Origin: an uncultured Burkholderiales bacterium
GTDB taxonomy: Bacteria; Vulcanimicrobiota; Xenobia; Xenobiales; Xenobiaceae
Reading direction: 5' to 3'
Length of the DNA stretch: 13,842 nt
NCBI GenBank assembly: GCA_964595195.1
Contig: CAZQPM010000075.1
Span: 1 to 13,842 of the forward strand
Shown one piece after another: positions 1 to 13,201 of this stretch. A program made the position numbers and the translations under genes. The notes beneath the pieces are model-generated. The model made no database searches. It was given only the letters and a program-made list of their open reading frames with translations, and was not told the origin of the DNA. Positions within the stretch are counted from its first letter, which is position 1, and each line of letters opens with the position of its first letter.

Positions 1-126
1 CGATGCACGCCTTCCTTGCATCCAGACCCGCCTCGACGCCCTCGGTTCTCACGCCTGGTGGCGGATCGGGGGTCGTTTGAGGACCTTGATTTGTGCCCCT
101 GCGCCCGTTATCCTGACGGAGATATA

Positions 127-176
127 ACGGCGTCCATCAAACCCGGCCGATCCTGCCCTCCTCCGATGGACGGCGT
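127..176. repeat. 12-bp inverted repeat (11 of 12 pairing) separated by 26 nt, forming a potential hairpin in a locally AT-richer patch.
   Basis: ACGGCGTCCATC (127-138) and GATGGACGGCGT (165-176) are reverse complements except for one G-G mismatch. The repeat sits next to gagatataacgg, which is unusually AT-rich for this genome. No downstream U-tract is present. Confidence 0.6.
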
Positions 177-464
177 CCCTGGTCGTCGACCCTTGTGAGG
201 AGGTTCGCCGTACGCTTCGCGGGCAGATCAGCCTGACCGACGACGAGGGCGAGCGGATCGCAAGAGCCGAACCCATGTCGCTGTCGGACCGCTGCATCAA
301 GCGGCAACTCCGCATTCAGGCCCGGGCCGAGGTCGGGGTTCGAACGTTGACCCGGATTCGGGAGGAATCGTGATCCCGGGAGCCTGCCGGAAAACGGAGG
401 CCGTGAAGGCAAGGCAGGGCAATCCAGGACCCGCCTCCACCAGAATCTTCAGGAGGACTGAACG

Positions 465-761
465 TTGTCTATTCAACCGGTCGATTACCACCCGATGTGG
501 GCCAGGCTCGGCCTCGACCTGCCCACGCATGATGCTCTCCTTGAGGCGGTCGGCCAGATTTTCAGCGACGTCTATCTCACCCAGACCAACCGGCCCAAGG
601 GGATGGACTACCTGAACTTCGTGATGAGCCAGGTCCACGGACTGCGAATCCAGGAACTCGATGATTTCCGTTCCCGGGGCGGCAAGGTCTTCGGAACCTT
701 CTGCCTGTACGTTCCCGAGGAGATCCGTGCGCTGCCGGGACCGGCAAGTTCCTCGAGGTGA
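465..761 (+). pseudogene. N-terminal fragment (about 87 aa homologous) of a 2-hydroxyacyl-CoA dehydratase / double-cubane-cluster subunit (HgdB/BcrB/YjiM-like). Truncated remnant.
   Basis: There is a TTG start at 465 with an AGGAGG ribosome-binding site at 451-456 (8-nt spacer). The translation MSIQPVDYHPMWARLGLDLPTHDALLEAVGQIFSDVYLTQTNRPKGMDYLNFVMSQVHGLRIQELDDFRSRGGKVFGTFCLYVPEEI matches the conserved N-terminal region of HgdB-family dehydratase subunits (W.ELG.D...H..L, NRP.GM.Y, HGLRI.EL, GGKV.G.FC.YVPEE). After EEI (to 725) the frame runs into non-homologous residues and a TGA at 759-761. A full subunit would be about 380 aa. Confidence 0.7.
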
Positions 762-1162
762 TGGCGAAGGCCCTCGGCTTCAGCCTGGAGGAGATGGCGG
801 CCCGGGCGCTGGCGGCCCGAACCGGGATCGCGATCTCCAGCATGTGTACTGTCTTCGCTGAAAGCGAGGTGACCGGCCTCATACACCGCGGGGAAGACCG
901 GGGCCGAATCGCGCGCGGCCTGCACGAGTCGATCGCCCGGCGCACACTCAGTTCGCTTCAGCGCGTGAGGGCGCAGGGCCCGTTGGTGTTTGCTGGCGGC
1001 GTGGCCCGAAATCCGGCCATGGTGGCCCTCATTCTCGAGGGCTTCGCGGGCGAGGTGCGGGTTCCGCCAGATCCCCAGATTGTGGGCGCCTATGGAGCTG
1101 CCCTGAGTGCATGTCCGACCCTCCAGGCTCAGGAGGTGGCCTCCACCACCGACTCAGGCTGA
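722..1162 (+). pseudogene. C-terminal half (about 146 aa) of a CoA-substrate-specific enzyme activase (HgdC/BcrA/BcrD-type ATPase). The N-terminal ATP-binding half is missing.
   Basis: Frame +2 from 722 reads DPCAAGTGKFLEVMAKALGFSLEEMAARA...SSMCTVFAESEVTGLIHRGEDRGRIARGLHESIARRTLSSLQRVRAQGPLVFAGGVARNPAMVALILEGFAGEVRVPPDPQIVGAYGAALSA. This matches the HgdC motifs CAAGTGRFLDVMA, TCTVFAESEV, IIAGIHRS and TGGVAQN-(Q)YNGALGAAL. The frame is open upstream only to a TGA at 662-664. The first 100-120 aa of an activase (the GIDGGST ATP-binding segment) are absent. The stop is TGA at 1160-1162. Confidence 0.75.
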
Positions 1163-1392: not shown

Positions 1393-3495
1393 TCAGCGGG
1401 ACTCGGCCACCGCCTTGGCCTGGCCCAGGGGCAGTTCGCCCAGACCCAGGCTGCCAGCCGCTTCCAGAAGCTTCTGCAGGCCCGCCTTCTCGGGCCCCTG
1501 ACTGCGGGCCACCAGGAGGCCCAGGGCCGCCGACAGGGTCAGGCTCTGCAGGTCCCCGGCCGAGAGAGCGGGATGGGAGAGCACCTCCTTGAGGTCCTGC
1601 GGGAGGCTGCGCCCCCCTTCCAGATACTCCGCCGCCAGGTTCCGGGCCACCTGGCTGCGCCCCACGAAGCCGTCCATGGCCTTGCCCAGCGAGACGGCGC
1701 TGAACATCTTGTCCATGAAGGCGCCGTCCCCGCCCACGATATCGATCCTGGCGTTCTTGAAGGCCTCGCCCATCACGTGGGCCTGGTGCTCGGCCACGCC
1801 CAGACGGGTCCTCAGTTCCTCCAAAGCGATCAGGCGCTCGTTCTCCAGGCGCAGGCGATACTCTTCATGACCGCGGCTGGCCTCGTTGAGGGCTGCCATG
1901 GCCTGGGCCTTCTCGGCCAGACCCTTGGCCTCGCCGGTCAGCCTCAGCTCGATGGCGTCGGCCTCGGCTCGAGCCCGTTCCCGCAGCACGGTGACATCGG
2001 CCAGGCCCAGTTTCTCCTGAGCCGGGGCCTTGGCTTCCTGCACCCGGACCTCGGCCATGCCCTGCTTCTCGAAGGCGGCCGCCTGGGCTTCCTGCACCCG
2101 GGCCTCGGCCAGGCCGGGGGCGGCGGTCTCGGCCTGCACGCCCTCGGCCAGGCGGATCTTGGCGGCAGCCGCGCGGTCGGCGGACTGCTGCTCGGCCTCG
2201 GCCAGGGTCAGCATCTCCTTGGAGCGCAGCCGCGAGACCGCCTCGGCGGCCTCGGCCCGACGGATCTCCTTGGCCGCCGCCTCCTCGGCCTCGGCCTGGG
2301 CGGCGATCACGGCGGCCTCCTTCAGGCGGCGGGCCTCCTCGACGACGCGCACGCCCTTGATGCGCTCCTCCTCCTCGGCCACGGTCTTCTCGACGGCCAC
2401 GCGCTCGCGGATGACCTCCTGGATGTTCTTGCGCTGCTCCTCGAGGTCGCGCTCCTTGGCGATGCGCTGCAACTCGACCTCGCGCTCGCGGGCCACGGCC
2501 TCCAGGTCCCTCTCGCGGGTCACCCGCTCCTGCTCGACGGCGATCACCCGCTCGCGGTTCTTCTCGGCCACCTGAACCTCGCGCATCTTGTTCTGTTCCT
2601 GCACGGACAGTTCTTCGTCGGTCTTGATCCGGGCGGTCTCGGAGCGCAGCCTCTCCTCGGCCTGCACCTTCTCGGTCTCGGCCTGCTCGCGGGCCCGCAC
2701 CGTGGCGATCTCGCGATCCTTGCGGGCCTCGGCGTCGGCCTTCTGCCGTTCCAGGTCGAAGATCAGGGCGGCGGCCTCCACGTCCTGTTTGGTGATCTGC
2801 TTCTTGCGGGTGTTCTCCCACTCGTTGGTGCGGATGTGCTCCTGGGCGGTCAACTCGGTGATCTTCTTGATGCCCTGGGCGTCCAGGATGTTCTCGGGGT
2901 CCAGGTTGGAGAGCGGCGTCTGCTCGAGGTGGTCGATGGCCGCGTCCTCCAGGTAGTAGCCGTTCAGGTGGCGACCGATGACCTCGATGATCGCGTCGCG
3001 GAACTTCTCGCGCTGGGTGTAGAGGTCCTCGAAGTCCATCTGCTTGCCCACCGTCTTGAGGGCCTCGGAGAACTTGGCGGCGAAGAGCCGGTCCAGGGTC
3101 TCGGGGTCGCTGGCCCGACGGCAGCCGATATTCTGGGCCACCTGGATCACGTCTTCCTTGGTCTTGTTGACGCGCACGAAGAAGGTGACCCGGATGTCCG
3201 CCCGGATGTTGTCCTTGCAGATCAGCCCCTCCTTGCCGCGGCGGTCGATATCCACCGTGCGCACCGACAGGTCCATGAACTCGGCCTTGTGCCAGATGGG
3301 GAAGACCCAGCCCCCGGTGAAGGTCACCTCGGGGTCCTTGCCGCGCTTGTTGACGATCAGGGCCTGACCCTGCTCGACCAGGATCAGCACGTTGCTGACC
3401 CAGCGGCGGAAGAGGGTCCAGACCAGGGGAATCCCCACCGCCAAGGCGACCAGGATGACCCCCCAGGTAGCGTAGGACTTCAGGGATTCAAGCAC
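1393..3495 (-). CDS. floT: Flotillin-family SPFH/band-7 membrane protein (FloT/YqiK-like), 700 aa, with an unusually long E/A/R-rich coiled-coil (flotillin EA-repeat) region.
   Basis: There is a GTG start at 3495 with a GGAGG 9 nt upstream on the - strand. The N-terminal transmembrane helix is YATWGVILVALAVGIPLVW. The SPFH core reads ALIVNKRGKDPEVTFTGGWVFPIWHKAEFMDLSVRTVDIDRRGKEGLICKDNIRADIRVTFFVRV. A long AEAR/VQEA-type coiled coil follows, then a C-terminal flotillin-like tail. The stop is at 1393-1395. Confidence 0.9.
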   Translation of the reverse strand: MLESLKSYATWGVILVALAVGIPLVWTLFRRWVSNVLILVEQGQALIVNKRGKDPEVTFTGGWVFPIWHKAEFMDLSVRTVDIDRRGKEGLICKDNIRADIRVTFFVRVNKTKEDVIQVAQNIGCRRASDPETLDRLFAAKFSEALKTVGKQMDFEDLYTQREKFRDAIIEVIGRHLNGYYLEDAAIDHLEQTPLSNLDPENILDAQGIKKITELTAQEHIRTNEWENTRKKQITKQDVEAAALIFDLERQKADAEARKDREIATVRAREQAETEKVQAEERLRSETARIKTDEELSVQEQNKMREVQVAEKNRERVIAVEQERVTRERDLEAVAREREVELQRIAKERDLEEQRKNIQEVIRERVAVEKTVAEEEERIKGVRVVEEARRLKEAAVIAAQAEAEEAAAKEIRRAEAAEAVSRLRSKEMLTLAEAEQQSADRAAAAKIRLAEGVQAETAAPGLAEARVQEAQAAAFEKQGMAEVRVQEAKAPAQEKLGLADVTVLRERARAEADAIELRLTGEAKGLAEKAQAMAALNEASRGHEEYRLRLENERLIALEELRTRLGVAEHQAHVMGEAFKNARIDIVGGDGAFMDKMFSAVSLGKAMDGFVGRSQVARNLAAEYLEGGRSLPQDLKEVLSHPALSAGDLQSLTLSAALGLLVARSQGPEKAGLQKLLEAAGSLGLGELPLGQAKAVAESR
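2030..2114. repeat. Imperfect 31-nt direct repeat with a 54-nt (18-codon) period inside the flotillin coiled-coil coding region.
   Basis: ttggcttcctgcacccggacctcggccatgc (2030-2060) and tgggcttcctgcacccgggcctcggccaggc (2084-2114) differ at 3 positions. On the - strand they encode GMAEVRVQEAK / GLAEARVQEAQ. The gcctcggcc motif recurs many times across 1900-2400. Confidence 0.8.
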
Positions 3496-3678: not shown

Positions 3679-5016
3679 TTGCAGCAACTGATCGACCGCT
3701 ACTTTGGAGTCACCCAGGCAGGAAGCACGCTCAAGACCGAGCTCCTGGCCGGCCTGACCACCTTCCTGACCATGGCCTACATCCTCTTCCTGAACCCCCA
3801 GATCCTGGGGGACGCGGGCATGGATACCCGGGCCGTCATGCTGGCCACCGCGCTGGCCTCCGGCTTCGGTTGCCTGGCCATGGGCCTGGTGGCCCGGCTT
3901 CCCTTCGCGCTGGCGCCCGGGATGGGCGTCAACGCCTTCTTTGCCTACACCGTGGTGGCCCAGAAGCACATCCCCTGGCAGGTGGGCCTGGGCGCCGTCT
4001 TCCTGGACGGGCTGCTCTTCCTGATCCTCAGCATCCTGCCGATCCGGGAACGCATCATCCGGGAGATCCCCTACAGCCTGAAACTGGCCACCTCGGGGGC
4101 CATCGGTCTGTTCATCACCTTCATCGGCCTGCGCAGCGCGGGCATCGTGGCCGCGTCCGACGCCACCCTGGTGACCATGGGCCACCTGACCTCTCCCCCG
4201 GTGGCCCTGGCCGTGGGGGGCCTGCTGCTGATGGGCTGGCTTCTGGCCCGCGGGGTGAGGGGGGCCCTGCTGCTGGGGATCCTGGCCGTGACCGTGGTCG
4301 GCCTCTTCGTGCCGGGGGCCGACGGGCCCGTCACCCACCTTCCCCGGGGCGGGGCCCTGGTGGCCCTCCCCGACCTGGGGGTCCTGGGCCTGGTCATGGG
4401 CCAGATGGACGTGGTCGGGGCCCTCGAGATGGGCCTGGTGGTGATCGTCTTCACCTTCACCTTCGTCGACCTCTTCGACACCGCGGGCACCTTCGTCGGC
4501 CTGGGCACGCGCATGGGCTGGATCGACCGCGAACGCCAGAGCTTCCCGGGCCTGGGCCGGGGCCTCGTGGTGGACGCCGTGGCCACCATGTTCGGTGCCT
4601 TCGCCGGGACCAGCACCACCACCACCTACGTCGAGAGCGCCGCCGGCATCTCGGAAGGCGGGCGAACGGGCCTGACCTCGGTCACGGTAGGCCTCCTCTT
4701 CCTGGCCGCCATGGTCTTCGCCCCCCTGGCCGGGGTGGTGCCCGCCCAGGCCACGGCGCCGGCCCTGATCCTGGTGGGCTTCCTGATGCTCGAGCCGGTG
4801 ACCCGGTTGGACCTGATCGACGTCACCGAGGCCCTCCCCGCCTTCCTGACCCTGGTGATCATGCCGCTGACCTACAACATCGCCAACGGGCTGATCTGGG
4901 GCATCACCAGCTATGCCATCCTGAAGGCCCTGACCGGCCGCGGGCGCGAGGTCGGCGTCACCATGTGGGTGCTGGCGATCCTGTTCATCCTGGCCGTGAC
5001 GATGGACCTGCGCTAG
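3679..5016 (+). CDS. NCS2-family nucleobase permease of the AzgA/COG2252 subfamily (adenine/guanine/hypoxanthine permease; PbuG/PurP/GhxP-like), 445 aa.
   Basis: There is a TTG start at 3679 with a GGGAGG 8 nt upstream. The N-terminus MQQLIDRYFGVTQAGSTLKTELLAGLTTFLTMAYILFLNPQIL is the signature start of AzgA-like permeases (compare E. coli AdeP ...[39 protein letters not shown]). The protein has about 12 hydrophobic segments throughout. The stop is TAG at 5014-5016. The upstream part of the 1301-aa ORF 1111..5016 is antisense flotillin and is not part of this gene. Confidence 0.9.
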   Translation: MQQLIDRYFGVTQAGSTLKTELLAGLTTFLTMAYILFLNPQILGDAGMDTRAVMLATALASGFGCLAMGLVARLPFALAPGMGVNAFFAYTVVAQKHIPWQVGLGAVFLDGLLFLILSILPIRERIIREIPYSLKLATSGAIGLFITFIGLRSAGIVAASDATLVTMGHLTSPPVALAVGGLLLMGWLLARGVRGALLLGILAVTVVGLFVPGADGPVTHLPRGGALVALPDLGVLGLVMGQMDVVGALEMGLVVIVFTFTFVDLFDTAGTFVGLGTRMGWIDRERQSFPGLGRGLVVDAVATMFGAFAGTSTTTTYVESAAGISEGGRTGLTSVTVGLLFLAAMVFAPLAGVVPAQATAPALILVGFLMLEPVTRLDLIDVTEALPAFLTLVIMPLTYNIANGLIWGITSYAILKALTGRGREVGVTMWVLAILFILAVTMDLR

Positions 5017-5024
5017 CCGGGCCG

Positions 5025-6242
5025 ATGCAGGACCTCTACGTCGACCTGCACGTGCACATCGGCCGCAACGGCCAGGGCCGGCCCGTCAAGATCACCGCCA
5101 GCCGGCGCCTGACCTTCGCGGCCGTGATCCGCGAGTGCCGCGAGCGCAAGGGCCTGGACATGGTCGGCGTCATCGACTGCGCCTGCACCGGGGTCCTGCA
5201 GGATCTGCGGAAACTGATCGACCAGGGCGAGCTGCTGGAGTTGCCCGAGGGCGGCCTGCGCCACCGAGGGCGGGTCACCGTCGTGGCAGGTGCCGAGGTG
5301 GAGGCCGTCGAGGAGTCCGGGGGCGTCTCACACCACCTGTGCTACTTCCCGTACCTCCGCAACCTGGCCGAGTTCTCCCGGGTCATGTCCGGCTACATCA
5401 CGAACATGGAGCTCTCCTCCCAGCGCTGCGGCCTGCCGGCCCGCGAACTGGCGGCCGTGGTCCATTCCACCGGAGGTATCCTGGTCCCGGCCCACGCCTT
5501 CACTCCCCACAAGAGCGTCTACGGGAACGCGTGCGACCGCCTGGCGGACCTGCTGGGGTCAGGCTGGGAGCAGGTGTCGGCGCTGGAGTTGGGCCTGTCC
5601 GCCGACTCGGCGCTGGCCGACCATCTGCCCGAGCTGGCCGGGGTGACCCTCCTGTCCAACTCCGACGCCCACTCTCCGGAGAGGATCGGCCGGGAGTACA
5701 ACGTGATCCGCATGGAGGCCCCCAACTATCGCGAGCTGGTGCTGGCCCTGCACCGGACCGCGGGCCGCCGGGTGGTGGCCAACTACGGTCTGGACCCGCG
5801 CCTGGGCCGCTACCACCGCTCGTTCTGCACGGTCTGCGAGGCGCCCGTCACGGCCCCTCCCCCGGTGCTGGCCTGCCCCCGATGCGGCGCCGCCGACAAG
5901 CGCTTCGTGCGCGGCGTCCTGGACCGGGTCCGCTCGCTGGCCGGGCGCCAGGGCCCCGAATCGCCCGAGCACCGCCCCCCCTACCGCTACCAGGTGCCGC
6001 TGAGCTTCGTGCCCGGGCTGAGCCGGGCTGGCCTGAACCGCCTGATCGCGCGCTTCGGCAGCGAGATGGCGGTGCTGCATCAGGCCCGGCCAGAGGAGAT
6101 GGCCAGCCTGGTGGGCTGGGAGGTGGCGCGCTCGATCGGGGAAGCCCGCGAGGGCCGCCTCAACCTGGAGGCCGGGGGTGGCGGCCACTACGGCAGGGTC
6201 GCGGCCGGGCCTCACCGCGGGGAGCAGTTGGGCCTGTTCTGA
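5025..6242 (+). CDS. Endonuclease Q (EndoQ) family protein (TIGR00375 / PHP-like fold), 405 aa. It is a predicted endonuclease that nicks DNA 5' of deoxyuridine, hypoxanthine or abasic sites.
   Basis: The ATG at 5025 lies 8 nt after the permease stop. The protein aligns motif by motif with Pyrococcus furiosus EndoQ: DLHVHIG (Pfu DLHIHS), HHLCYFP (HHLLIFP), PAHAFTP (identical), LELGLSADSALAD (LELGLSADSDMAD), LSNSDAHSP (identical), GLDPRLGRYH (GLDPRLGKYH), a zinc finger CTVCE-x13-CPRCG (C..C...CPKCGG), DRPPY (identical) and GGGGHYG (GGGGKYG). The real start is internal to the 859-aa ORF 3663..6242. Confidence 0.85.
   Translation: MQDLYVDLHVHIGRNGQGRPVKITASRRLTFAAVIRECRERKGLDMVGVIDCACTGVLQDLRKLIDQGELLELPEGGLRHRGRVTVVAGAEVEAVEESGGVSHHLCYFPYLRNLAEFSRVMSGYITNMELSSQRCGLPARELAAVVHSTGGILVPAHAFTPHKSVYGNACDRLADLLGSGWEQVSALELGLSADSALADHLPELAGVTLLSNSDAHSPERIGREYNVIRMEAPNYRELVLALHRTAGRRVVANYGLDPRLGRYHRSFCTVCEAPVTAPPPVLACPRCGAADKRFVRGVLDRVRSLAGRQGPESPEHRPPYRYQVPLSFVPGLSRAGLNRLIARFGSEMAVLHQARPEEMASLVGWEVARSIGEAREGRLNLEAGGGGHYGRVAAGPHRGEQLGLF
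6225..6239 (+). other. C-terminal pentapeptide QLGLF of EndoQ, a candidate beta sliding-clamp (DnaN) binding motif.
   Basis: The last five codons before the TGA are cag ttg ggc ctg ttc. This fits the bacterial clamp-binding consensus QL[SD]LF / QLxLF, located at the extreme C-terminus as in Pol IV and Pol II. Archaeal EndoQ carries a C-terminal PIP box for PCNA at the equivalent position. Confidence 0.4.
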
Positions 6243-6267
6243 GGGTCGCCTTCAGCACCACACGCCT

Positions 6268-6684
6268 TCAGGACTCCAGGTAGCGCATCACGTCCGCGGG
6301 ATACTCGACGTGGTAGACCAGGGAAAGGGTGTGACCCGTCAGGGTGCTGGCCCGGGGCACCAGGTTCTGCTCTTCCAGAATCATCGAGAAGTAGCGGCGC
6401 AGCCGGCGCCCCAGGGCCGTGTTGGCGGTCTGCACGTGGTAGCGCACGGGCTTCAGGCCGTGGATGTGCAGGGTCACCTCCTGCTGGAGCCGCCCGATCG
6501 TGGCGTACATCTGGATCCGGGAGTTCGAGCGCTGGCGAGCGCACACCACGAAGCGGGGAGGCTGGGCCTCGCGGGCATTCAGGAATTCGACCAGGCGGTG
6601 CAGGATCTTCAGGAAGTGCTCCTCGGCACGAGTGAACCGGAAGAAGGTCTGCTCGAACCGGTGCATCTGCTCGGCCTCGAACAT
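6268..6684 (-). CDS. Hypothetical cytoplasmic protein, 138 aa, His-rich. It lies immediately downstream of the DtxR-family regulator (7-nt gap).
   Basis: The start was chosen at the internal ATG 6684 (MFEAEQMHRFEQTFFRF...) with a GGAGG 13 nt upstream. Before that Met, the ORF's in-frame N-terminal extension would overlap the DtxR tail. The stop is TGA at 6268-6270. The protein has no transmembrane segment. It has many His residues (MHRF, EEHF, ILHRL, TLHIHGL, RYHV, GHTL, YHVEY) and no recognisable family from sequence alone. Confidence 0.5.
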   Translation of the reverse strand: MFEAEQMHRFEQTFFRFTRAEEHFLKILHRLVEFLNAREAQPPRFVVCARQRSNSRIQMYATIGRLQQEVTLHIHGLKPVRYHVQTANTALGRRLRRYFSMILEEQNLVPRASTLTGHTLSLVYHVEYPADVMRYLES

Positions 6685-6691
6685 CGGGACG

Positions 6692-7447
6692 CTACGACCT
6701 CCGCACACGGGCAGCCCGGACGGCCCGGGCCCTCCGGTTCTGTGAGCCCTCGAGGCGCTCATCTGCCAGCCAGGGTCGCCCCAGGTTCGCCAGAGCCGGC
6801 CGGACGGCCACCTTACCGGCAACCTCGCGGCTCAGGGGAAAGGACTTGTCGTCCACCGACACCAGCAGGGGGCCATCGAAGGGCGCCACCTGCTCGACGG
6901 TGACCCGCTGACCGGGCCACAGGCCGACCTCGACCAGATAGTCGACCAACTCCACCGAGCCCTCCTTGACCCGCTCGATCACCACCTGCTGCCCCGCCAG
7001 GACCGAGGCCAGGGGCCAGGCGTCCTGCAGGTCGATGTGGCCCGCGCGGTCGGGGATGGGCTGCCCGTGCGGACAGGTCTTGGGGTGCCCCAGGAAGTCG
7101 TCCAGAGCGTCGGCCACCTCATCGGAGAGGATGTGCTCCAGCTTGCAGGCCTGGTCATAGGCGTGGGCCCAGGGAATCCCCAGTCGGTCCACCAGCAACC
7201 TCTCGGCCAGGCGATGCTTGCGGATCACGTTCAGGACGATCCGCTCGCCTTCGCGAGTCAACTGCAGAGCCCGGGAATTCTTGACGATCAGTCCCTTCTC
7301 GTGCAGTTTGCGGACCATCTCGGTGACCGAAACGGCGCTGACCCCCAGGCGTTCAGCCAGGCGGACGTTGGCCGGCACGACCTCACCCTCCTCGGAGAGA
7401 CGATAGATCGTGAGAAGATACATCTGGACGGATTCGGAAACGGACAC
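6692..7447 (-). CDS. DtxR/IdeR/MntR-family metal-dependent transcriptional repressor with a C-terminal SH3-like (FeoA-like) domain.
   Basis: The N-terminal HTH and metal-binding core is (VSVSESVQ)[47 protein letters not shown]...[57 protein letters not shown], which parallels M. tuberculosis IdeR (TEMYLRTIY..., [18 protein letters not shown]...EACRWEHVMSEDVE). The start is either GTG 7447 (GAGGG 5-6 nt upstream) or ATG 7423. The upstream 130 aa of ORF 6692..7819 are an artefact. The stop is TAG at 6692-6694, and there is an Arg-rich C-terminal tail. Confidence 0.85.
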
Positions 7448-7663
7448 TTCAACCCTCAGGGCCGGGATTTCGCGTTGGTTCCCAAGTCTTCCTGGCCCTC
7501 CCGCGGGCGGAGATTTCCCGGTTGCCGCCGACCCCTCCGGGTGGAGGACTCTTCTTCCCCATGACAGAAACAAGGTGCCCAAGACGCCGGGCCAGCGGGT
7601 CTGCCCCCCAGGGAATCGGTGGGGTCCACCTCGCCCGGCGACGCAACGCGATCGGGAGACCCC
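7448..7663. promoter_or_regulatory. Divergent intergenic region between the DtxR-family regulator (-) and the metallophosphoesterase (+). It contains a repeated GGGATTTCGCG / GGAGATTTCCCGG element.
   Basis: This is a 216-nt non-coding gap. The GATTTC-containing elements sit at about 7464-7474 and 7505-7517. A short palindrome TTGG-ttc-CCAA lies at about 7476-7486. The phosphoesterase ribosome-binding site GGGAG is at 7654-7658. Confidence 0.35.
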
Positions 7664-8752
7664 ATGGACCCCCAGAGCCCCTCCAACAGCCCGTTCGGAC
7701 CGACGGAGAATCCAGCCAGCCCGGAGCCCGGCGAACAGGCCCCACTTCGGCGCAAGCTGCTGGCCATCGGCGATCTCCACGGCGACTACCACCGTCTGCT
7801 GCGCCATCTGCGCGAGCACCAGTTGCTGTTCGAGGATACCCTGGCCTGGAACCCCGAGCAGGACAACGTCGACCTGGTGCTGATCGGCGACTACGTCGAC
7901 TGGCGCGGCGAACCCCTGGAGGAGCCCACCGACCAGTCACCGGAACTGCCCGAAGCCGGGCCCCGGCGAATCCTGGAACTGCTGATGCACCTGGACGAAG
8001 AACTGGAGAAGCTGCGAGGCGCCATCCCGGGCTTCGCCAGCCAGCTCTACGCGCTCCTGGGCAACCACGACGAGATGATGCTGGATGCCGTCGGGGTCTT
8101 CGACTTCCTGCACGTCGAACAGCTCGAGGAGGTCCTGGGCCGGGCCCGCAACTTCGCCGCGGTGAAGCGTCACATGGCCGAAAGGGGCCTGAACGCCGAC
8201 CAACTCGAACGCGTCATGCGCTTCATGAACTGGTACGTCCAGGGAGGCGAGCAGACGGCCAAGGGATTCGGCGGTCTGGTGGCCTGGAAGGAGGCCATGG
8301 ATCGCGACCTGGGCCGCTTCCTGCGGACCCGCCTGCGGCTGGGAGTGGTGGTCGACCACCGCCTCTTCGCCCACACGATCCCGGACCAGCGCAAGTTCTG
8401 GAGACCGCTGGAGGAGATCGTCGCACTCCCCGACAACGAGTTCCGCTCGGCTCGCGAGTCCTTCCTGTGGAGCCGGAAGATCTGGGGCTTCGACTACTAT
8501 ACAGGGATGCGCACGAATCCCTTCTCGGACAAGGAGCTCGACGAGATGCTGGGACGCCTGGGCGTTCGCGGCCTGGTGGTCGGGCACACGCCTCTCACCC
8601 GTGGCCAGGAGTACGTGGTGGCCTACGGAGGCAAGGTGATCAACCTGGACGTGCACGGCACGCCGGGGGCCGCGGCCCTGGTCGAGGAGTACGTGCCCTC
8701 CGAGAACAGCTCCCGGGCCCCCCTGCGGATCCAGGTCCAGGGTTCGAAGTGA
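7664..8752 (+). CDS. Calcineurin-like metallophosphoesterase (PPP/ApaH-like Ser/Thr phosphatase or bis-nucleoside tetraphosphatase-like), 362 aa, with a Ser/Pro-rich N-terminal tail.
   Basis: The ATG at 7664 has a GGGAG 5 nt upstream. The alternative GTG at 7619 lacks a ribosome-binding site. The motifs are GDLHGDY (GDxHG), GDYVDWRG (GDxVDRG-like), GNHDE (GNH[DE]), VVGHTP (GH) and DVHGT. The stop TGA at 8750-8752 overlaps the next start. Confidence 0.85.
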
Positions 8753-9681
8753 AGGAGATCCAGGAACTCAGCCAGCGGGTGCTGGCCAACGTCGAGAAGG
8801 TCATCCTGGGCAAGCACGAGGAGATCCGCTTGGTCCTGGTCGCCCTGCTGTGCGAGGGCCACGTGCTGCTGGAGGATGTCCCGGGAGTCGGCAAGACCAT
8901 GCTGAGCCGCGCCGTGGCCCGTTCGCTGGGCTGCTCCTTCGCCCGGCTCCAGTGCACCCCGGATCTCCTGCCGTCAGACCTCCTGGGTGTGACCATCTAC
9001 AACCAGAAGTCGATGGACTTCGAGTTCCGCCCCGGGCCGGTCTTCCACCAGGTGCTGCTGGCCGACGAGATCAACCGGGCCACGCCCAAGACCCAGTCGG
9101 CCCTCCTGGAAAGCATGGACGAGCGTCAGGTGACCACCGAAGGGGTGGCCCGCCCCCTGCCCCGCCCCTTCCTGGTGATGGCCACCCAGAATCCCATCGA
9201 GTACGAGGGCACCTTCCCCCTGCCCGAGGCCCAGTTGGACCGCTTCCTGCTGAGGATCCGCCTGGGCTATCCCTCGTTCGAGGCCGAGACCGAGATGCTG
9301 GTCTCCCAGCAGCACCACCATCCGATCGAGGACCTGGACCAGGTCGTCGCCGGCCCCGAACTGCAGCGCATGCAGGCCATGGTCCACGAGGTGGAGGTGG
9401 AGGAATCCCTGCGCCACTACATCGTGCGCCTGGTCCAGGCGACCCGGGAGGCCGACCGGCTCTTCCTGGGCGCCAGCCCCCGGGGCAGCCAGGCCCTGTT
9501 CCGGGCGGCCCAGGCCCTGGCCGCCATGGAGGGTCGCCGCTACGTGCTGCCCGACGACATCAAGGCCCTGGCGATCCCGGCGCTTTCCCACCGGATGATC
9601 TCCCGGACGGATGGGGTCGGCGGCCGGGCCGCCGTCGAGGTCCTGCAGGGCCTGCTGGACCGACTGCCGGTCCCGGTCTAG
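8749..9681 (+). CDS. moxR: MoxR-family AAA+ ATPase (AAA_3 / COG0714), 310 aa.
   Basis: The GTG start at 8749 overlaps the upstream stop (GTGA). The N-terminus [61 protein letters not shown] is the typical MoxR start. Walker A is PGVGKT, Walker B is [10 protein letters not shown] and sensor 1 is ATQNP. The length is typical for MoxR. The upstream part of ORF 7522..9681 is in another frame over the phosphoesterase and is an artefact. Confidence 0.9.
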
Positions 9682-9748
9682 GGATCTTCCCAGGCCCGAT
9701 GTCCATGAATTGAGGCGCAAAGGCTGTAGGATCGACGATGGTCGGCAC

Positions 9749-10492
9749 CTAGGTCGCGACCAGGGCCCGCAACCCCTCCAGGACGTGGCCTGCCTGCAGC
9801 ACTGGGATGCCCTTTTCGCGAGCCAGGGCGCGCGCGGCCGGGGTGTTGTAGCCCCAGCCGGCCAGGGCCACCCGGACCCCGGTCTCGAAGACCGGCTCCA
9901 GGTTCGCCAGCAGGTCATCGACGAAGACGATCCGCTCCGGGTCGACCCCTCGCGTGGCCGCCAGGAAGCCCATCTGGTCCCGCTTGTCCAGGCTGAACTC
10001 CTTGGCCAGGATCGAAGCCTTCAGGTCCGCCGTTTCCAGCAACTCACGGATCGAGCCCTCATCCTTGGTGGTGCAGATGACCACCTCGCGGAAGGCCCGG
10101 CGCAACAAGGGCCACTCCTGGAGCATCGCGGGATAGGGAGCCTGGGCGGCCAGCCAGGCCTCCCTCTCCTCCCTCCGGGCCCGCTGGCGCTGGGCGTAGA
10201 ACTCCTCTTCGAAGCTCTTCAGGAACGAGCCCCCTCCCGAGCTGGAGGCCAGCAACTGTTCGCGACTGAGGGCCTCCAGGTCCCGGTCCGGGTCCTCCTG
10301 GAGCAGGCGCAGCACCAGGCCGAACTCGCCGCCGGTGCGGACCAGCCAACGGCCGCGCCGGAAGGCAGCCTCGCTGACCGCAGGCCAGGGCAGCCCCAGG
10401 GCCTCCCAAGCCCGGCGGGCCGTGATGAAACATTCGCCGACGCTATCCCACAGGACCCCATCGAAGTCCAGGGCCAGCAGGTGCTCCTTCAT
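9749..10492 (-). CDS. HAD-superfamily hydrolase (haloacid dehalogenase-like phosphatase), 247 aa.
   Basis: The ATG at 10492 overlaps the gltX stop (ATGA). Motif I is LALDFDGVLWDS (DxDG), motif II is ICTTKD, and the motif III region is VFVDD. The stop is TAG at 9749-9751. Confidence 0.8.
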   Translation of the reverse strand: MKEHLLALDFDGVLWDSVGECFITARRAWEALGLPWPAVSEAAFRRGRWLVRTGGEFGLVLRLLQEDPDRDLEALSREQLLASSSGGGSFLKSFEEEFYAQRQRARREEREAWLAAQAPYPAMLQEWPLLRRAFREVVICTTKDEGSIRELLETADLKASILAKEFSLDKRDQMGFLAATRGVDPERIVFVDDLLANLEPVFETGVRVALAGWGYNTPAARALAREKGIPVLQAGHVLEGLRALVAT

Positions 10493-11931
10493 GGACGGGG
10501 CAGCCGGTCCAGGGCTGCGCGCAGCCGGCGCAGGCAGACCTCGCGCCCCAGGACCTCCATCATCTCGAAGAGGCCCGGACCGTTGCCCACGCCCGACAGG
10601 GCCAACCGGGTCGGGTGGATCAACTGTCCGGCCCCCAACCCCCGGCTCTCGGTCAGCCCGCGCAGGGCCTGGTCCAAGGAATCATGGTTGAACTCCGGCA
10701 GGTCCTGCAGCACGGCGATCCAGGCCTCCACCAGGTCCGGGGAGTTGGCCTTCCAGCGCTTCTTGACCGTGCCCTCCTCGTAGTCGGTGGGGTCCTCGTA
10801 GAAGTAGGAAACGGGCTCGACGTAGTCCGTCAGGAGGTTCGCGCGCTCACCCAGGACCTCGACGACGCGGGCCAGGTACTCCGGTTGGGGCCGGGGTCTG
10901 CCAGCCCGATCGAAGAAGGGCAGCACCAACTCGACCAGGCGTTCGGTGGTCTGGGCGCGCATGTGCAGCCCGTTGATGTGCAGCAACTTGTCGAAGTCGA
11001 AGACCGCACCCGACTTGCGGACCCGATCCAGGCCGAAGACGCCGGTCAGTTCCTGGGGCGTGAAGAACTCGCGCTCGTCGCCGGGACTCCAGCCCAGGAG
11101 GGCCAGGAAGTTCAGCAGCCCCTCGGGCAGGTAGCCCTTCTCGCGATAGGCCTCGACCGAGACGTCCCCGTCGCGCTTCGACAGCTTCTTGCCGCTGGCA
11201 TTCAGGATCAGGGGCACGTGGGCGAAGACCGGCGGCTCCCAGCCGAAGTACTCGTAGAGGAGGAGGTGCTTGGGGGTGGAGGACAACCACTCCTCACCCC
11301 GGATCACGTGGGTGATCTCCATCAGGTGGTCGTCCACCACGGCGGCCAGGTGGTAGGTGGGGAAGCCGTCCGACTTCATCAGGACCTGGTCGTCCACCAG
11401 CGAGGACTCGAAACTGACGGGCCCGCGGATCTGGTCCTCCACGGTCAGCGTGCGGCCTTCGGGGATCCGCATGCGGATCACGTGGGCCTCGCCGACGGCC
11501 AGGCGGCGGTCCCGCTCGGCGGGGTCCAGGGACCGACAGTGACCGTCATACATGGCCGAGTCGCCACGAGCCATCTGCTCCTCGCGCATCGCGGTGAGGC
11601 GCTCGGGGGTGCAGAAACAGGGATAGGCATGGCCGGCCTCGACCAGCTTCGCGGCCATCTCGCGGTAGATCTCCAGGCGTTCGCTCTGCACGTAGGGTCC
11701 CAGCGGACCGCCGACCATCGCGCCCTCGTCGGGGGTCACCCCCGCCCACTCCAGGGATTCCAGCAGGGCTTCGACGGCCCCCTCGACCAGACGCGTACGG
11801 TCCGTATCCTCGATGCGCAGCAGGAAGCTCCCGCCTTCCCTGCGGGCCAGCAGCCAGTTGTAGAAGGCGGTTCTCAACCCCCCGACGTGCAGATAACCGG
11901 TAGGGCTGGGAGCGAAGCGGACGCGGACCAT
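10489..11931 (-). CDS. gltX: Glutamyl-tRNA synthetase (class I aaRS), 480 aa.
   Basis: The ATG at 11931 has a GGAGA 7 nt upstream. The N-terminus is MVRVRFAPSPTGYLHVGGLRTAFYNWLLAR, with the HIGH motif as HVGG. The KMSKS motif is KLSKR. A CxC-x24-C zinc-binding-like motif (CFCTPERL...GHC) matches the E. coli GluRS pattern. The N-terminal 218 aa of ORF 10489..12585 are an antisense artefact over dus. Confidence 0.92.
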   Translation of the reverse strand: MVRVRFAPSPTGYLHVGGLRTAFYNWLLARREGGSFLLRIEDTDRTRLVEGAVEALLESLEWAGVTPDEGAMVGGPLGPYVQSERLEIYREMAAKLVEAGHAYPCFCTPERLTAMREEQMARGDSAMYDGHCRSLDPAERDRRLAVGEAHVIRMRIPEGRTLTVEDQIRGPVSFESSLVDDQVLMKSDGFPTYHLAAVVDDHLMEITHVIRGEEWLSSTPKHLLLYEYFGWEPPVFAHVPLILNASGKKLSKRDGDVSVEAYREKGYLPEGLLNFLALLGWSPGDEREFFTPQELTGVFGLDRVRKSGAVFDFDKLLHINGLHMRAQTTERLVELVLPFFDRAGRPRPQPEYLARVVEVLGERANLLTDYVEPVSYFYEDPTDYEEGTVKKRWKANSPDLVEAWIAVLQDLPEFNHDSLDQALRGLTESRGLGAGQLIHPTRLALSGVGNGPGLFEMMEVLGREVCLRRLRAALDRLPRP

Positions 11932-12079
11932 GGTATGTCTCCAGTCGGCGGGGTGTGCATTTCGAAGCCCGGGCATCACCGTGCACGGCGTCCTCGGGTC
12001 GGGGTGCTTCCCGTTCACCGTCGAGCCCGGGAACCCTGCGGGCAGGGACCCGGGTGAAGAACGAGAAGCCCGGCCGCCT
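11932..12079. promoter_or_regulatory. Divergent intergenic or promoter region between gltX (-) and dus (+).
   Basis: This is a 148-nt gap between the divergent starts. It contains GTGCA...GTGCAC elements (about 11955-11988). No T-box-like or obvious attenuator structure was recognised. Confidence 0.3.
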
Positions 12080-13201
12080 ATGTCGTCCCCCTGGCCCGAC
12101 CCGCTGATGCTGGCCCCCCTGACCAAGGGGGGGAACCTTCCCTTCCGCCGCCTTTGCGTCGACTTCGGCGCCGTGATCACCATGTCCGAGATGGCCTTCG
12201 CCGGCCCCCTGACCCGCGGGATCCGCAAGGAACTGGCCCTGCTGCGCAGGGGCCCGGAAGAGCCCTGCTTCGGCGTGCAACTGGCGGCTTCCAAGCCCGA
12301 GATGGCCGTGGAGGCCGCCCTGCTGGCCGTGGACCGGGGAGCCGCCTTCGTCGACCTGAACGCGGGCTGCCCGATCGCCGAGGCGGTCCACAAGGGGATG
12401 GGGGCCAGCCTTCTGGACCGGCCCCGCAACCTCGAGCGCCTGCTGGCGGCCCTGGTCCGGGCCGTCCCCGTGCCCGTCACCGTGAAACTGCGCACCGGCT
12501 TCAAGGAGTCACGGATCAACGTGCTGGAGACCTCGCGCCTGGCCGAGGAGGCCGGCGTGGCGGCCATCACGGTCCACGGTCGCACCCGCGAGCAGCGCTA
12601 CACGCGGGCGGCGGATTGGGACCTGATCGGCCAGGTGGTGCAGGCTCGCCGCGTCCCCGTGGCCGGGAACGGCGACGTGCTGACCTGGTATGAGGCCGCC
12701 CGTCGCCTGGAAATCAGCGGGGCTGCCGGCGTGATGCTGGGCCGGGGGGCCCTGATCAAGCCCTGGCTCTTCCAGGAGATCCGCGAGCGTCGGGAACTGT
12801 GCCTGACGCCCGCCCAACGGGTCTCGGTCTACCGCCGGCTGGCCGGCTACTTCCGAGAGCATTTCGGGGATGACGAACACGGCCGCCAGCGCTCGCTGGA
12901 CTTCCTGACCTGGCACTTCGCCTTCTTCCACCGCTATCGGCCGTTGCCACCTGAGCCGTGGGAATCGCGCTCGCGCGAGCACCCCCTGCTGCAGACGCGG
13001 ATGGACCCGATCCTGTCCGAGGACCCCCTGGAGAACGTCCTGGCCCACCCTGAGGAGGCGACCCATCGCCAGATCGCCGCCATCCTCCTGGACAGTGGCG
13101 ACGACGAGGAAGCCCGGGTATGCCTGGCCGCCCTGGCGCCGGGCCTGGAGGTCCCGCGGGCCCCGGAGCGGCCCGGCCCGGAGGCTGCGGTCCAAGGCTG
13201 A
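12080..13201 (+). CDS. dus: tRNA-dihydrouridine synthase (Dus family flavin oxidoreductase), 373 aa, with a C-terminal extension.
   Basis: The ATG is at 12080. The N-terminus MSSPWPDPLMLAPLTKGGNLPFRRLC matches Dus N-termini (LAPMAGVTDxPFRxLC). The catalytic-Cys loop is DLNAGCP. Further motifs are TVKLRTG and TVHGRTREQRY. The C-terminal 40-50 aa have no counterpart in typical Dus proteins. The stop is TGA at 13199-13201. Confidence 0.88.
   Translation: MSSPWPDPLMLAPLTKGGNLPFRRLCVDFGAVITMSEMAFAGPLTRGIRKELALLRRGPEEPCFGVQLAASKPEMAVEAALLAVDRGAAFVDLNAGCPIAEAVHKGMGASLLDRPRNLERLLAALVRAVPVPVTVKLRTGFKESRINVLETSRLAEEAGVAAITVHGRTREQRYTRAADWDLIGQVVQARRVPVAGNGDVLTWYEAARRLEISGAAGVMLGRGALIKPWLFQEIRERRELCLTPAQRVSVYRRLAGYFREHFGDDEHGRQRSLDFLTWHFAFFHRYRPLPPEPWESRSREHPLLQTRMDPILSEDPLENVLAHPEEATHRQIAAILLDSGDDEEARVCLAALAPGLEVPRAPERPGPEAAVQG

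Follow-up and report, generated by a model that had tools for sequence, protein, structure and literature searches.

The window, i.e., the whole stretch of 13,842 nucleotides that was analyzed, has a G+C content of 69% and carries near its left end two open gene pieces on the forward strand (Table 1). Positions 465-725 correspond to codons 1-87 of a gene predicted to encode a double-cubane cluster protein (DCCP), and positions 728-1162, one frame over, correspond to the last ~134 codons of an activase gene, the predicted reductase of DCCP (DCCP-R). A Shine-Dalgarno-like AGGAGG lies in front of the first piece, and relatives carry GGAG or AGGAG at the same spacing. The 98-aa residual ORF that follows is composed of 87 DCCP residues (MSIQPVDYHPMW...GKVFGTFCLYVPEEI) and an out-of-frame, unconserved tail of 11 residues (RALPGPASSSR). 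The initial annotation of this DNA had described about 87 aa in frame +1 with a ribosome-binding site and a TTG start, and both the AGGAGG and the ORF were indeed found there.

Translated from 722 or 728, the activase frame reads (DP)CAAGTGKFLEVMAKALG..., i.e., (DP)CAAGTGKFLEVMAKALGFSLEE...IVGAYGAALS..., and ends at the stop codon at 1160-1162. The first codon of the remnant, codon 118, encodes the Cys of NDKCAAGTG, and the remnant as a whole comprises ~127 conserved residues and a 17-aa tail. The earliest start codon in this frame is the GTG at 758 or the ATG at 761, with none before 758. The initial annotation had rightly placed an activase C-terminus in the other frame, but its length of 146 aa from position 722 has to be corrected, since homology starts at codon 118, i.e., at nucleotide 727/728.

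Table 1. Features of the window, with the evidence on which each row is based.
Feature	Position	Strand	Basis
Shine-Dalgarno-like AGGAGG	452..457	+	Read from the sequence; 7 nt 5' of the DCCP-remnant start
Predicted DCCP 5' remnant, codons 1-87 of 426	465..725	+	tblastn, blastn, PDB matches
5' residual ORF, 98 aa, TTG start, stop 759-761	465..761	+	ORF calls; P0001 in public collections
Putative deletion junction (GATCCGTGCGCTG)	722..734	+	Window aligned to both parental sites, 12 close relatives plus L080/L082
Predicted DCCP-R (activase) 3' remnant, codon 118 to stop	728..1162	+	PF01869, TIGR00241, 7YYL_E, tblastn
3' residual ORF, 133 aa from ATG 761 (134 aa from GTG 758)	761..1162	+	ORF calls; P0007
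Flotillin-like protein	1393-3495	-	Weak NCBIfam FloT match, 27.6 bits
Xanthine/uracil-family permease	~3700-5016	+	
DtxR/FeoA-type repressor	6692-7819	-	
HAD-type hydrolase	9749-10492	-	
Glutamyl-tRNA synthetase	10489 to ~11940	-	
DusB-like dihydrouridine synthase	~12077-13201	+	

The genes to the right of the remnant are an ordinary chromosomal context. The nearest of them, the flotillin-like ORF, encodes 700 aa; a membrane anchor at the N-terminus is accompanied by a flotillin-like region and by a long coiled-coil-like stretch rich in Glu, Ala, and Arg. This ORF had no Pfam match at E<=0.001, and a spurious 1301-aa ORF lies opposite to it. Neither the 464 nt in front of the remnant nor the 230 nt behind it gave family matches or homologues, and both showed a weak coding signal. 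Likewise, no family matches were obtained for the antisense and overlapping ORFs in 1-1600, no Rfam family was found over the whole window, and promoter and terminator scans of 1-1500 remained at chance level.

Identity of the two gene pieces

The first 87 residues of the upstream piece were 83-86% identical to the N-termini of intact relatives of 426 aa. In tblastn, residues 1-93 of the DCCP of the intact relative L004 aligned at window 465-740 with 83% identity, and at the nucleotide level positions 10014-10261 of L002 matched the DCCP piece of the window at 81% (blastn). The sole matches of the first 87 residues in the Protein Data Bank were 7YYL_C/6ENO_A (residues 3-89, E 3e-19); HadB/C, BzdN/O, and MbdN gave no PDB match to the surviving N-terminal segment. 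No Pfam match, HGD-D included, was found for the 98-aa fragment; the HGD-D model covers the full protein only from residue 80 onward, which explains the lack of a match. Against the profile NF040772 (“double-cubane-cluster-containing anaerobic reductase”) the 98-aa ORF scored 19.4 bits (E 4e-4, profile positions 7-34 of 372), below the equivalog cut-off of 350 bits. The upstream protein of L004 reached 493.7 bits against the same profile, and its scores against other families were 120 bits for HadC NF052456 (cut-off 700), 78 bits for BzdN (cut-off 454), and 66 bits for BcrC (cut-off 421). The intact relative also aligned end to end with the DCCP structures 6ENO/7YYL (E ~6e-145).

DCCP-type proteins are defined by a seven-cysteine motif, six cysteines of which ligate an [8Fe-9S] cluster, and their genes are paired with a reductase gene (PMC7317905). 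The published spacing of this motif gave no literal match; with a slightly relaxed spacing the pattern C-X18/19-C-X18/19-C-X29-C-X160-170-C-X32-34-C-X32-C was found in all of the 61 intact relatives. The DCCP remnant keeps one of the seven motif cysteines, Cys80, which is the first. On the evidence of sequence, the upstream gene is thus assigned as an orthologue of DCCP (NF040772; 426 aa, HGD-D superfamily). A 2-hydroxyacyl-CoA dehydratase or BcrB-like subunit was considered for this gene and rejected, as a single catalytic gene precedes the activase and the scores lie far under the cut-offs of those families. The initial annotation, which spoke of a dehydratase-type subunit with its activase and of a radical dehydratase system, therefore holds at the level of the superfamily and fails where it implies a HgdAB/Bcr-type enzyme, the system being predicted as DCCP/DCCP-R. 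At the position homologous to the TTG at 465-467, ATG was found in 49 of 50 relatives and GTG in the remaining one; the TTG could be an alternative start that is tolerated, or else a second lesion.

The downstream piece was recognized by profiles of the activase family. PF01869 (BcrAD_BadFG) matched the activase frame over profile positions 134-271 of 271 with E 4e-27, and TIGR00241 matched over positions 119-247 of 248 with E 1.6e-35 and 122.9 bits, just below the cut-off of 125.4; the downstream gene of intact relatives scored 214 bits against TIGR00241. The frame also matched solved activators, including DCCP-R (7YYL_E, residues 115-241 of 243), and residues 116-244 of the L004 activase aligned at window 722-1108 with 83% identity in tblastn. 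The activase partner is assigned as DCCP-R, the reductase of DCCP (~250 aa, BcrAD/HgdC “archerase” family). The N-terminal ASKHA nucleotide-binding half of DCCP-R is wholly absent, as both profile matches start in mid-model, which confirms that the ATP-binding N-terminus is gone, as first claimed. The profile check proposed at that time (HGD-D PF06050 and BcrAD_BadFG PF01869) was thereby carried out, and PF01869 alone was returned.

In Carboxydothermus hydrogenoformans the [4Fe-4S] cluster of DCCP-R is held by C115 and C152 (PMC9351452). Codons for both ligand cysteines are still present in the DNA of the window, the first in the stretch for CAAGTG at 728-745 and the second further on, in SSMCTVFAE. 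The first of these codons lies upstream of the first possible start (758) in the activase frame. Six of the seven motif cysteines of the DCCP cluster and the whole ATP-binding half of DCCP-R have been lost, and to judge from the known structures and mechanism, neither piece would be capable of ATP-driven electron transfer or of reducing a substrate.

The ancestral gene pair and the junction

An N-terminal peptide scan of one genome per GTDB species, a set of representatives outside which the genome of the window falls, yielded 76 related loci. Most of them belong to MAGs of uncultured Coriobacteriia/Actinomycetota and the remoter ones to Myxococcota, Dehalococcoidia, and other groups; the closest loci encode a 426-aa protein. 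The loci were surveyed by tblastn, the two proteins of L004 serving as references. Wherever enough DNA was available (~60 loci), DCCP residues 1-426 were followed within 3-100 nt by a complete activase gene for ~245-255 aa. In the window, and in its twin on a public Logan contig, DCCP residues 1 to ~87 are followed directly by activase residues 116-244, so that the 3' half of the DCCP-R gene alone stands behind the DCCP piece. None of the 76 related loci showed this short two-piece arrangement in place of the full pair.

Comparison with L002 by blastn placed window 478-725 at 10014-10261 and window 727-1107 at 11643-12023, and no foreign sequence was found between the two pieces in the alignments to L002 and other relatives. 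Measured from the start codon to the Cys codon of CAAGTG, the net shortfall of the window relative to the 12 closest intact relatives was 1372-1373 nt, a length not divisible by three. With 87 of 426 DCCP codons and ~134 of ~250 DCCP-R codons left, and with the frame broken, the locus has the features of a pseudogene. About 339 aa are missing from the upstream protein, more than the ~300 aa given in the initial annotation.

No intact allele from this species, with matching flanks, came to light: when the window ORFs were looked up as exact proteins, a single Logan contig of 1 kb was returned, and an exact 23-nt scan of JGI metagenome contigs returned four loci, all from remoter relatives (<=79%). 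Moreover, no meaningful similarity to any of the 76 related loci was obtained with the window flanks in tblastx, and since flank synteny is absent, the breakpoints were mapped on non-syntenic relatives only. We infer the ancestral intact pair in the lineage of the window from relatives at ~80% nucleotide identity. The comparison with intact relatives that had been called for was in this way carried out, and the universal gene order, the collinear ends, and the gap of 1372-1373 nt support the original proposal of a single internal deletion across a dehydratase-type-then-activase gene pair.

At the junction, homology to the left parental site stops at 725 (...CCCGAGGAGATC) and homology to the right parental site starts at 727/728 (GTGCGCTGCCGGGACCGGCAAG...). 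In relatives the left site reads ...GAGGAGATCATCCG(C/T)GC(G)... and the right site ...GACAAGTGCGC(C/G/T)GC(C/G)GG...; in one metagenomic relative (L080) the left site is ATCATCCGTGCGCTGGG. Because of these sequences, GTGCG, extending up to GTGCGCTG, may have been a direct repeat at both parental sites, corresponding to a possible junction microhomology of 5-8 nt, GTGCG(CTG). A short direct repeat at both ends is expected for slippage or microhomology-mediated deletion. A pair of Ile codons, ATCATC, which is present in all relatives, is reduced by one ATC in the window. The missing ATC could be a second small lesion (3-nt slippage), or the join could be slightly untidy with one or two unmatched bases at 725-726; in either case the junction is not a clean join of two pieces and calls for a further small event or a more complicated structure. 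A repeat search revealed no repeats, inverted repeats, or traces of mobile elements at the junction. The junction had been placed near 722-727 before; its location is correct, and the alignments place it no more finely than about 722-734.

Taken together, it is very probable that 465-1162 is the pseudogene remnant of a DCCP/DCCP-R two-gene operon after one deletion of ~1.37 kb. What was lost would be DCCP codons ~88-426, the short spacer behind them, and DCCP-R codons 1-117. The deletion probably arose at the short direct repeat GTGCG (or its longer form), and the two outer ends would have been joined out of frame. We infer that there was a single event, that microhomology was used, and that the product is inactive. 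A real rearrangement of another kind, i.e., recombination between DCCP/DCCP-R paralogues or at least two successive deletions, would accommodate the additional 3-nt loss or the unmatched bases at the junction, and paralogous pairs do occur in related MAGs (L006/L013, L011/L077, L034/L035). However, the order, orientation, and affinity of the pieces, both of which are nearest to L004/L005/L008/L011 and have nothing foreign between them, are those of a single collinear deletion, and such a rearrangement is unlikely.

Function, age, and reproducibility of the remnant

A functional short arrangement, in which the 98-aa DCCP N-terminal peptide, the 133-aa Fe/S-domain half, or a frameshift-fused product is used by the cell, was also weighed. 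Both pieces are open and without surplus replacements, with a coding-like GC3 of ~0.8, the ribosome-binding site is kept, a separate 141-aa half-activase ORF in L048 starts at almost the same codon, and short proteins of 133-186 aa beginning with MNDKCAAGTG occur among the library representatives. Nevertheless, the arrangement does not recur among the related loci, the 133-aa ORF begins past the first cluster cysteine with no ribosome-binding site of its own seen, the ATP-binding half, functionally the defining part of an activase, is missing, the DCCP fragment has a single motif cysteine, and TTG stands where ATG is nearly universal. The short library proteins, for their part, have a conserved internal Met as their first residue, and a frameshift terminates at least one of them, a pattern that gene calls on fragments would produce. 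A use of the short arrangement by the cell is therefore considered highly improbable.

The library proteins P0013, P0017, P0094, and P0153 (133-186 aa) start exactly at the conserved internal Met of the activase motif EMNDKCAAGTG, and the sequence of P0013 is frameshifted at its end; truncated or frameshifted genes are the probable source of these gene calls. It is very unlikely that the NDK/CAAGTG codons are a recurrent breakpoint or that the C-terminal Fe/S half of the activase survives as a stand-alone protein, readings suggested by the neighbouring starts of the remnant and of an independent partial duplicate in L048 and by the short library proteins.

The age of the putative deletion was assessed from the state of the two pieces. 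Neither of them contains internal stops or further frameshifts beyond the junction. The unique change at invariant residues was E56Q in the DCCP piece (together with K63Q within the close clade), and there was none in the DCCP-R piece; one or two unique changes are no more than are found in intact relatives. Dating by dN/dS failed, with synonymous sites saturated (pS 0.56-0.78), and a pN/pS comparison was used instead, which gave 0.18-0.20 between window and relatives and 0.22-0.27 when intact pairs were compared within the same range of pS. The GC3 of the pieces was slightly lower than that of the neighbouring genes (0.87-0.95). Stops, invariant residues, and pN/pS thus gave no sign of relaxed selection in the remnant. 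Because there is no other stop or frameshift and no surplus of amino-acid changes, these observations indicate that the deletion happened recently when set against the divergence from the closest relatives sampled; the absence of accelerated decay would be compatible with some constraint on the remnants as well.

Exact-protein look-up placed the 98-aa ORF also on the Logan contig SRR9674392_229361. This contig corresponds to window 26-1040 (1015 bp) with six substitutions, no indels, and the same junction, which thus recurs in an assembly that comes from another pipeline and a slightly different strain. The lesion was thus seen in both of the assemblies compared, and since the junction in the independent contig is the same, an assembly indel or chimera is unlikely. 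An artefact, in which the intact operon is real and the contig was collapsed or mis-joined or an indel error shifts the frame, might be suspected in a 13.8-kb MAG contig, the more so as error-like frameshifts occur in these genes in several long-read MAG loci of relatives (L002, L009, L032, L039, L074, L076), but it is extremely improbable given the Logan junction, a difference from relatives that is a gap of 1372 nt rather than an indel of 1-2 nt, and parental sites that share at most ~8 nt, far under assembler k-mer sizes and too short for a de Bruijn mis-join.

The same observations dispose of the alternative offered in the initial annotation, a natural fusion protein with a sequencing frameshift: the independent junction is free of indels, no relative has the short arrangement, and even after correction by one base the protein would be without six of the seven cluster cysteines and without the ATPase half. 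DCCP and/or DCCP-R are split over several frames in L002, L009, L032, L039, L057, L074, and L076, several of these loci belonging to MFD MAGs or ENA assemblies with the look of long-read data (the platform being judged by appearance). Sequencing error seems a better account of these frame breaks than pseudogene formation, and in such long-read-like records they should not be counted as decay.

Ongoing gene decay in the region, as had been proposed, was not borne out, the neighbours being ordinary chromosomal genes and the upstream ORF having no homologues. This ORF (26-373) was examined as a second pseudogene and rejected; it had no homologues, no Pfam match, and a weak coding composition, and it is probably not a gene. 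The TAA at window 125-127 within it is CAA in the Logan contig (L001 100-102), where a 115-aa ORF results that runs off the contig end.

Related losses and comparison with known systems

A second deletion was observed in L077 (positions 6001-6883; JALHJB010000005.1, MAG 7-NCT_026). Here DCCP has an internal out-of-frame deletion of 388 bp that joins residues 1-35 to residues 166-426 at TTTGGTGATGGAGCTG with ~4-7 nt of microhomology. The DCCP-R gene of L077 is intact, and the same MAG contains an intact pair (L011) with a homologous upstream region. L077 is a second, independent deletion pseudogene in the clade. Like the window it has an out-of-frame deletion at a short direct repeat; it differs in that the deletion is confined to DCCP, whereas that of the window spans both genes.

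A partial copy of another kind was found in L048 (OY968780.1, a Coriobacteriia MAG chromosome), which has an intact DCCP gene at 6001-7260 and an intact DCCP-R gene at 7290-8051. At 9676-10110 it carries in addition the partial 3' half of a second DCCP-R gene, a 141-aa ORF, of which 9695-10110 is 96% identical to 7633-8051. Homology of this partial copy begins at ACGACAAGTGCGCC, ~7 nt upstream of the point where the remnant in the window starts. Between the copies lies an ORF of 354 aa (8609-9673, minus strand), by appearance a candidate ATP-dependent DNA ligase.

Two DCCP loci each were present in three related MAGs, L006/L013 in JAVERH01, L011/L077 in JALHJB01, and L034/L035 in CALLZE01. Because paralogous copies are common in the group, the loss of one DCCP copy is plausible. 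As the window shows, uncultured Coriobacteriia-like Actinomycetota, among which the pair occurs widely and at times in duplicate, are able to lose genes of the DCCP system. The remnant is an ordinary pseudogene, a deletion remnant of a known kind, which adds nothing new on how DCCP works. Its significance is mainly a matter of annotation: the deposited proteins of 98 and 133 aa should be read as one DCCP/DCCP-R pseudogene and not as a “dehydratase” and an “activase.”

The closest characterized system is DCCP/DCCP-R of C. hydrogenoformans (CHY_0487/CHY_0488; 6ENO, 7YYL, 7YZM, 7YZQ), with whose DCCP the relatives' protein is collinear over its full length. It is an ATP-driven low-potential reductase system, and the physiological role and substrate of DCCP are unknown (PMC9351452). 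On this pair the pieces in the window correspond to about residues 3-89 of DCCP and to residues 115-241 of DCCP-R. The relatives resemble the described DCCP family in their seven-cysteine pattern and in the activase-type reductase gene that comes next (PMC7317905). Unlike the working pair of C. hydrogenoformans, the window has just the two outer ends, out of frame with each other.

HgdAB/HgdC, HadBC/HadI, and the class I enzymes BcrABCD/BzdNOPQ belong to the same superfamilies (HGD-D PF06050; BcrAD_BadFG PF01869), and the activase remnant scored about equally against HadI (4EHT), HgdC (1HUX), and DCCP-R. The dehydratases and benzoyl-CoA reductases have two homologous catalytic subunits, each with a three-cysteine [4Fe-4S] site (PMC7317905); the relatives studied here, unlike HgdAB and Bcr, have one catalytic gene with seven motif cysteines. 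Finally, class III DCCP-like proteins of Firmicutes are fusions of the catalytic part and the reductase of ~550 aa (PMC7317905), and show that DCCP and reductase sequence can share one frame in nature, as in the fusion alternative of the initial annotation. These fusions keep the six ligand cysteines and a complete reductase, whereas the window holds at most ~220 aa, out of frame, and retains neither.
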